This document shows, piece after piece, positions 11,285-11,620 of a stretch of DNA of 59,241 nucleotides. Where the stretch lies: IMG/VR virus record IMGVR_UViG_3300006149_000003. One strand, given 5' to 3'. Positions within the stretch are counted from its first letter, which is position 1; each line of letters begins with the position of its first letter. The notes beneath the pieces were generated by a model, which saw nothing but the letters and a program-made list of their open reading frames with translations, made no database searches and had not been told where the DNA came from. The position numbers were made by a program, and so were the translations under genes. Origin of the DNA: a virus (taxonomy: Duplodnaviria; Heunggongvirae; Uroviricota; Caudoviricetes).

Positions 11285-11620
11285 TGCCCGATTGAGATAA
11301 CATATCACGGCTGTGAGTGGCGGTCGTAATCCAAGGTGGCCTCCTGTGAGGGAGTGACTGGGCATAAAAGAAAGAGCGGTTAGGTAGCGTTGTACTATCG
11401 AGGGCGTTGCGGAAGCTGCGCACAGGCCATAGCCGCACACAGATGGCAACAGCCACGTAACTGCGGAAGCGTGGATATGTGCAACGGATGTCATGTACAT
11501 CGAAATACCTTGGTAGACTCAGATGGGAAACACTAATCCCCCTGCTCCCCGATAGAAAGGCTGAAATATGGCACAGCGTAAAGGTGTGTGGTGAGGCTGG
11601 GAGTGGAGTCACTTATGCAA
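11285..11620 (+). ncRNA. Unassigned large structured RNA candidate
   Basis: Nested and crossing helices, e.g. 11395-11404/11547-11555, 11406-11410/11481-11485, 11353-11359/11607-11613; no RBS-led ORF. Confidence 0.55.

Follow-up and report, generated by a model that had tools for sequence, protein, structure and literature searches.

A structured phage RNA with three pseudoknots, encoded within a tRNA array and, in related loci, beside RNA-repair genes

What occupies the tRNA-free, ORF-poor gap of 347 nt (11281-11627) that separates tRNA-Thr(tgt) (11205-11280) from tRNA-Tyr (11628-11714) in a phage tRNA array? The array comprises 19 tRNA genes on a single strand at 8040-12441 of the window, by which we mean the whole 59,241-nt stretch of DNA analysed here; the window is identified as phage DNA by the terminase and portal genes downstream of the array. 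A preliminary description made from the sequence had placed a large unassigned RNA at 11285-11620 and suggested that it might represent a new class of large phage noncoding RNA. Both statements are supported by our comparison with homologues, in which the element matches no Rfam family and its fold is backed by strong covariation.

The RNA body and its operon

Outside the conserved body of the RNA (Table 1), the flanks are unrelated from one cluster of homologues to the next. Four nucleotides separate the end of tRNA-Thr, whose CCA is encoded and whose 3' end falls at 11280, from the body, and six separate the body from the start of tRNA-Tyr. The mature RNA likely spans about 11281-11627, with the flanking tRNAs as its limits. 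Because G.U pairs are frequent, among them those in H4 and H10, the RNA is assigned to the plus strand. Two minus-strand ORFs that overlap it (131 and 164 aa) were dismissed as spurious; they are considered non-coding because they also span tRNA genes and because the indels among homologues do not come in threes.

A single strong promoter-like site (TTGACA-17-TATACT with TG, 7318-7346) precedes a ROOL RNA that stands ahead of the tRNA array, and a single terminator-like hairpin followed by a T-run (12477-12492) lies past the last tRNA. Both were recognised as consensus matches, and the interval that they delimit is probably one transcription unit.

Other parts of the array are also free of tRNAs. 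The 299-nt spacer between tRNA-Phe and tRNA-Lys (12067-12365) recurs in 32 fetched loci, with 91% conservation over 211 nt. Rfam gives no hit to it and its folding z is -0.97; it could be a further unassigned RNA, and its counterpart lies directly upstream of the RNA in arrays of a second type, typified by locus L003 (homologous loci bear L numbers throughout). Two gaps, 9379-9602 (224 nt) and 10038-10340 (303 nt), hold no tRNA and have no homologue among the fetched loci, and a minus-strand terminator-like hairpin is found at 10046-10063. Conservation of the short inter-tRNA spacers 11857-11989 (24 fetched loci) and 11715-11765 (16 fetched loci) exceeds the expectation for plain spacer. Elsewhere in the window, an RT-2 RNA (155 bits, 48363-48580), presumably a reverse-transcriptase-associated RNA, overlaps the start of a 464-aa ORF (48353-49747).

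Homologues and fold

Homologues were sought in IMG/VR, in metagenomes and on contigs of Clostridia metagenome-assembled genomes (MAGs) by scanning for exact matches to conserved words of 16-24 nt and then searching with nhmmer profiles. De-duplication left 60 distinct full-length homologues of about 265-480 nt, forming 26 clusters at 90% identity. About 40 IMG/VR loci were recovered, and a 17-mer around H13 retrieved 22 of 22 true homologues in that database. Metagenomes contributed at least 62 true hits among at least 118 stretches matched, mostly from the human gut; among the 118 matches listed, 56 matches to short patterns were due to chance and were removed by the profile, as were most of the 98 short-pattern matches in genome contigs. 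Six Clostridia MAG contigs (Ruminococcus, Oscillospiraceae, Lachnospiraceae, Eubacteriales and Clostridiales) also carry the RNA, and it is common on phage contigs from human gut and rumen. The family is widespread in Clostridia-type gut and rumen phages. A blastn search of 50,697 GenBank phage records gave no match. The nearest genome (G001) is without the RNA, which was found in none of 401 genomes from that genome's order (the nearest host order), a sample that had no positive control.

The helices were identified by an all-against-all search of alignment column pairs for stacked, covarying, canonical pairs. This search replaced RNAalifold, which is unable to show pseudoknots; run on a MAFFT alignment, RNAalifold mis-assigned GCC/GGC and the 5' strand of H4. 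Already in a first three-way alignment, entire hairpins were present in some sequences and missing from others, and one stem had been exchanged for a complementary pair of unrelated sequence. The resulting model contains twelve core helices that are 94-100% canonical, eleven of them with compensatory changes (Table 1). Three of the twelve, H4, H5 and H9, are pseudoknots because they cross other helices.

Covariation had been proposed in the preliminary description as a check on the RNA, and it was found. Across 34 sequences the 60 core pairs are 98.4% canonical, as against 88.5 ± 0.4% after shuffling of the 3' columns (none of 500 shuffles reaches the observed value), and 32 pairs change on both sides, as against 16.8 ± 2.2 in the shuffles (maximum 26), figures that overstate the significance because related sequences are not independent. 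Two further measures are free of this effect of kinship. Sliding the partner strand by 1-3 columns leaves only 39-48% of pairs canonical, and counting by cluster (60 sequences) reveals alternative Watson-Crick pairs in several separate clusters for 11 of the 12 helices, with H13 invariant. The minimum free energy of the single sequence is no better than that of shuffled sequences (z of -0.48 for the plus strand and +0.77 for the minus strand), so the evidence for the fold is comparative rather than thermodynamic. We regard 11285-11621 as almost certainly a member of a structured RNA family.

Table 1. Coordinates of the RNA, its helices and domains, and associated features in the window
Feature	Position	Strand	Pairing, content and support
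Probable single transcription unit	7318-12500	+	Promoter-like site, ROOL, 19 tRNAs, tmRNA, the RNA, terminator-like hairpin
ROOL RNA	7391-8000	+	348 bits (RF03087); 3.3 kb upstream of the RNA, ahead of the tRNA array
tmRNA	8329-8753	+	72 bits; inside the tRNA array
Conserved RNA body	11285-11621	+	337 nt; conservation among homologues from U11285/G11286 to 11621
H1	11285-89/11360-64	+	UGCCC/GGGCA; 98-99% canonical; C-G to U-A at 11287/11362 in 7 of 26 clusters
H2	11290-92/11304-06	+	GAU/AUC; 100% canonical; 11291/11305 A-U in 15 clusters, G-C in 10
H3	11308-11/11323-26	+	CGGC/GUCG; 100% canonical; loop holds the H4 5' strand
H4 (pseudoknot)	11315-21/11608-14	+	GAGUGGC (in H3 loop)/GUCACUU; 60 of 60 canonical at all 7 pairs
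H5 (pseudoknot)	11331-37/11507-13	+	CCAAGGU (inside H1)/ACCUUGG; 98-99% canonical; strands 170 nt apart
H7	11376-80/11432-36	+	GCGGU/GCCGC; 53 of 53 canonical; C-G to A-U at 11377/11435 in 7 clusters
H8	11384-87/11395-98	+	GUAG/CUAU; 98% canonical; 11386/11396 A-U, G-C and U-A in 10, 10 and 5 clusters
H9 (pseudoknot)	11389-94/11616-21	+	GUUGUA/UGCAAU; 99% canonical; double-sided changes at 5 of 6 pairs
Variable middle domain	11437-11506	+	Absent or replaced in many homologues; modules come and go
Middle-domain hairpin	11453-57/11470-74	+	CCACG/CGUGG; loop with CUGCGGAAG; compensatory changes in the subset having the hairpin
Middle-domain hairpin	11487-91/11497-11501	+	GAUGU/ACAUC; compensatory changes in the subset having the hairpin
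H13	11525-28/11537-40	+	GGGA/UCCC; 94% canonical; almost invariant, hence no covariation available
3' domain	11542-11606	+	H10, H11, H12
H10	11542-48/11600-06	+	CUGCUCC/GGAGUGG; 100% canonical; 4 double-change pairs
H11	11559-62/11595-98	+	GGCU/GGCU; 98% canonical
H12	11572-75/11587-90	+	CACA/UGUG; 4 of 4 pairs covary
3' tail	11608-11621	+	GUCACUU-A-UGCAAU; bridges the H3 and H8 loops via H4 and H9

H1 encloses H2, H3, the 5' strand of H5 and a variable hairpin, H6 (11338-59). The 11-nt loop of H2 is near-invariant (UGAGAUAACAU), as are the loop of H13 (AACACUAA) and the sequence GCGUAAAGG carried in the loop of H12. H7 encloses H8 together with a GGAA-loop hairpin (11404-21), the inner GGAA hairpin being weakly supported, and the 5' strand of H9 makes up six bases of the 7-nt H8 loop CGUUGUA. 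H3 reads CGUG/CACG in the L006 group, and its G.U pair becomes A-U in L099. The pseudoknots also vary between clusters: H4 changes from G-C to U-A in six clusters, from U-A to C-G or A-U in four and from G-C to A-U in three, and H5 occurs as CCAAAG/CUUUGG, CCAGGG/CCCUGG, CGUUGG/CCAACG (L038 and L046) and CAUAGG/CCUAUG (L202). The divergent loci L202, in which H4 is GAUUUGC/GUAAAUC, and L242 keep all three pseudoknots and H1 with wholly different sequences. A candidate tertiary pairing between H2 and the H13 loop (GAUUG/UAAUC) was rejected, having no real covariation, as was a general closing stem formed by the 5' and 3' flanks, which is present only in some of the groups outside tRNA arrays (L018, L046 and L039). 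Most homologues read GGGCGUAAAAG...GCGGUU at 11360-11381, resembling the conserved 16S rRNA sequence GGGCGUAAAG...GCGGUU near position 570, a likeness that may be due to chance.

The preliminary description had also named individual pairings, eight of which were compared with 34-60 homologues. Three hold: GCTCCC/GGGAGT corresponds to H10, and CCACG/CGTGG and GATGT/ACATC are the two middle-domain hairpins, in each case with the compensatory changes given in Table 1. Five fail. CTATCG(A)GGG/CCCCGATAG (CTATCG/CGATAG) has C.A mismatches in 13-17 of 34 sequences; GTTGC/GCAAC and GCCAT/ATGGC are 30-80% canonical; and the two pairings offered for a long-range pseudoknot, AGTGACT/AGTCACT and GCATAA/TTATGC, are 65% and 80% canonical, respectively; AGTGACT forms the 3' side of a variable hairpin. 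The RNA does have a long-range pseudoknot, but its partners differ from those proposed: AGUCACU and UAUGCA pair with the hairpin loops of H3 and H8. The earlier secondary structure was thus largely wrong in its details, pseudoknot strands included, and its observation that GCGGAAG occurs twice is correct (at 11409 and 11463).

Known RNA families and novelty

A cmscan search with Rfam 15 (4227 models) at gathering thresholds returned nothing at 11285-11621, and at a permissive E<=10 the sole match in 11270-11640 was a plant miRNA model on the minus strand, at 16 bits. No Rfam model matched at the position of the RNA in 15 homologous loci at the gathering threshold, nor in 10 more divergent loci at E<=1. 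The models searched include RNase P, tmRNA, SRP, 6S, group I and II introns, ROOL, GOLLD, OLE, raiA and HEARO, as well as Y RNA, T-box and HDV-like RNAs. The reported absence of RNase P, SRP, 6S and group I signatures therefore stands at E<=10, and the known-family match by which the preliminary description had proposed to test its own suggestion appears neither for the RNA in the window nor for the 25 homologous loci.

Individual families were also considered in turn. The ROOL model RF03087 gives no signal at 11285-11621, compared with 348 bits on the true ROOL at 7391-8000. Bacterial RNase P RNA has the long-range helix P4 and the conserved sequences CR-I and CR-V; no RNase P model hits at E<=10, and the conserved single-stranded motifs of the RNA differ. 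No group I intron model hits either, and the element is intergenic, with flanks that are unrelated between clusters.

We found no description of this RNA family in the literature. The 8,495 candidate structured RNAs predicted by a survey of IMG/VR are only 29-151 nt long (PMC10690425). The family is very probably undescribed. Large ornate phage RNAs located near tRNA islands are an established broader kind, and the novelty lies in this family and its fold. The present RNA has the features of that kind, with a length above 250 nt, 12 helices and 3 pseudoknots, and it is phage-encoded (homologues lie on IMG/VR contigs), with tRNAs within 3 kb at 19 of 73 loci.

ROOL and GOLLD are among the closest parallels. 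They too are phage-encoded and often lie in or beside tRNA arrays, and each combines length and high conservation with several covariation-supported pseudoknots. They differ in size (about 580 nt for ROOL and over 800 for GOLLD, compared with 265-480 nt for this family) and in helix order, no sequence or covariance-model similarity between them and the family was found, and, unlike them, the family has about half of its loci beside RNA-repair genes rather than tRNAs. YrlA/Y RNA, which acts with Rsr, is a structured noncoding RNA in bacterial rsr-yrlBA-rtcBA RNA-repair operons and is thought to serve RNA quality control. The likeness is that of a structured noncoding RNA encoded beside RNA ligase or repair genes, with a proposed part in RNA quality control; the present RNA differs in having no Ro/Rsr gene nearby, no Y RNA model match and no recognised tRNA-like module, and it is three times larger and pseudoknotted.

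Gene neighbourhood and possible role

Among 73 loci, a tRNA abuts the RNA at 16, an RNA-repair gene lies nearby at 37 (Pnkp-like kinase-phosphatase-ligase, RlaP, CCA-adding enzyme and RNA ligase were counted) and a Band-7 gene at 19. Of the 34 distinct homologues collected first, 11 begin 2-4 nt after one tRNA and end 4-8 nt before the next, always in the same orientation; the majority of homologues lie outside tRNA arrays. The order is Thr or Trp, RNA, Tyr in arrays of the window's type and Phe, 287-nt spacer, RNA, Lys in those of the L003 type. Because its position in the array varies by lineage, the RNA behaves as an independent unit, much like a tRNA gene.

In four RNA clusters, a gene for a 740-aa protein starts 18-58 nt downstream of the RNA. 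The protein combines AAA_33 kinase, metallophosphoesterase and T4-Rnl1-type ligase domains and is therefore Pnkp-like; its gene is absent from the window's 59 kb and from four relatives with tRNA arrays. In other groups, genes near the RNA encode RlaP together with a CCA-adding enzyme, an RNA ligase (PF09414), a Band-7/SPFH protein or an ATP-dependent DNA ligase. RlaP is reported to add nucleotides to damaged RNA 3' ends and to be needed for repaired tRNA to regain its function (bioRxiv 10.64898/2025.12.29.696909). By a rough tally made by eye, tRNAs or RNA-repair genes accompany the RNA in about 18 of the 26 sequence clusters. Many of the loci with a repair context share one syntenic block, so the association with repair reflects few independent events. 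An endolysin gene adjoins the RNA in two groups, and some members adjoin genes without known function; no Pfam match was obtained for the small ORFs, of 145 and 161 aa, that closely follow the RNA in the L017 and L028 groups. Directly 3' of the RNA in the L024 group lies a terminator-like hairpin, which fits a free-standing RNA gene.

Two further observations concern these neighbourhoods. In the L017/L025/L209 group and in L023, L031, L032, L035, L058 and L099, two proteins are repeatedly encoded 0.2-4 kb from the RNA, beside DNA ligase and RNA ligase genes: one of the Band-7/SPFH type (30-51% identical across groups) and a YunG-like one of 99 aa. Related arrays of the L003 type contain, at the same place, three different remnants of the RNA (about 60-115 nt) produced by internal deletion, and short direct repeats mark every junction (AAGGT, GAGTGG, or after GGAATCC); the loci are L033, L034, L043, L047 and L040, and L225, L188, L158, L197, L155, L216 and L241. 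Because three different deletions have arisen there, the RNA is dispensable in these related arrays.

Our preferred interpretation, to which we assign a probability of roughly 55%, is that the RNA belongs to an undescribed three-pseudoknot family and acts in trans, after excision from the tRNA operon, in the supply or repair of phage tRNAs. The RNA would be made within a ROOL-tRNA-tmRNA operon transcript of about 5 kb, on the assumption of co-transcription. Its 3' end would result from RNase P cleavage at the start of tRNA-Tyr, and its 5' end from 3' processing of tRNA-Thr. Release by tRNA processing is the simplest reading of the arrangement and a probable one. It has a counterpart in the stable RNAs of the T4 tRNA cluster (species 1 and 2, or RNA C and D, of about 120-140 nt), which are co-transcribed with tRNAs and released by tRNA processing enzymes, and T4 also encodes Pnkp and Rnl1 for tRNA repair. 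RNA C and D are shorter and unrelated in sequence to the family.

Once excised, the RNA would be held together by its 3' tail, which would clamp two hairpin loops, and by a third long-range helix tying the 5' to the 3' domain, so that the near-invariant loops UGAGAUAACAU, AACACUAA and GCGUAAAGG would be left exposed. A partner protein or RNA would most likely bind through these invariant loops. From its gene neighbourhood, the RNA may then act in trans in a phage programme of tRNA supply and RNA repair, which might in turn counter host nucleases that cut tRNAs. The assignment to tRNA supply, repair or counter-defence is tentative when taken by itself, and a more specific version, in which the RNA itself takes an active part in RNA repair or counter-defence by the phage (as a large ribozyme or a tRNA-recognising RNA), is rather unlikely. 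Cleaved tRNAs might in that case be captured, protected or presented to the Pnkp-like, RlaP or CCA-adding enzymes or, alternatively, the RNA might act as a decoy for host anticodon nucleases.

ROOL, GOLLD and OLE are established homo-oligomeric, RNA-only assemblies, and by analogy the invariant loops could be contacts between copies of a self-assembling particle, a homo-oligomeric scaffold or cage. This idea, which is compatible with a tRNA-related role, draws on the many invariant unpaired bases, on the presence of a ROOL in the same operon and on a shared niche: ROOL and GOLLD are pseudoknotted phage or prophage RNAs, often near tRNA islands, that have no known function or protein partner and form RNA-only cages (PMC12286853). 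We consider it unlikely, as the RNA is half the size of ROOL or less, shows no sequence or model similarity to ROOL or GOLLD, and has no evident self-complementary conserved loop.

The position of the RNA immediately before the Pnkp-like start codon in four clusters would also suit a cis-acting leader of the riboswitch or T-box kind that senses, for example, tRNA status or damage and controls the downstream gene, notably that for the Pnkp-like enzyme. In the L024/L169 group, the interval from the RNA to the ribosome-binding site even contains a terminator-like hairpin and T-run, an attenuation-like arrangement. The downstream feature is inconsistent, however: in 16 loci it is a tRNA 2-8 nt away, leaving no ORF to regulate, and in other groups the genes are unrelated (endolysin, small proteins). 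The hairpin is confined to the L024 group, with no terminator in the L018 group, and no T-box or riboswitch model matches, which makes a leader improbable.

A large ribozyme is about equally doubtful. As is typical of ribozymes, the RNA is large, with nested pseudoknots and with nucleotides that are invariant though unpaired; it might cleave itself at its own ends, freeing itself and the adjoining tRNAs that lie within 2-8 nt, or might join or heal RNA ends. Theta ribozymes, minimal HDV-like elements of gut phages that directly abut tRNA genes, provide a precedent (PMC10879173), but they measure tens of nucleotides and have the HDV double-pseudoknot fold, whereas this RNA is much larger and has another topology. 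No ribozyme model matches it, and its release is already explained by host RNase P and 3' processing. Least probable is the reading that Rfam missed a strongly diverged RNA of an established family, be it RNase P RNA, tmRNA, a group I intron, Y RNA or another: phage versions can diverge strongly, as the low score of the window's own tmRNA illustrates, but the search found no relevant match at E<=10 in the window or at E<=1 in 10 divergent members, the helix order is unlike that of RNase P (P4) or group I introns (P3/P7), and the flanks are not conserved exons.

To our knowledge, natural RNAs that exceed 250 nt and contain several pseudoknots fall into few classes, and those with a worked-out function are ribozymes or the cores of ribonucleoproteins. 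Bacteria cut tRNAs and phages replace or mend them, and the placement of the present RNA in tRNA operons or directly before heal-and-seal enzymes ties it to this arms race. With its boundaries, 12 helices, three pseudoknots and invariant loops, the fold model makes the question of function directly testable. Should the RNA prove to have an active part in phage RNA repair or in counter-defence, it would constitute a new functional class of RNA in the contest between phage and host over tRNA.
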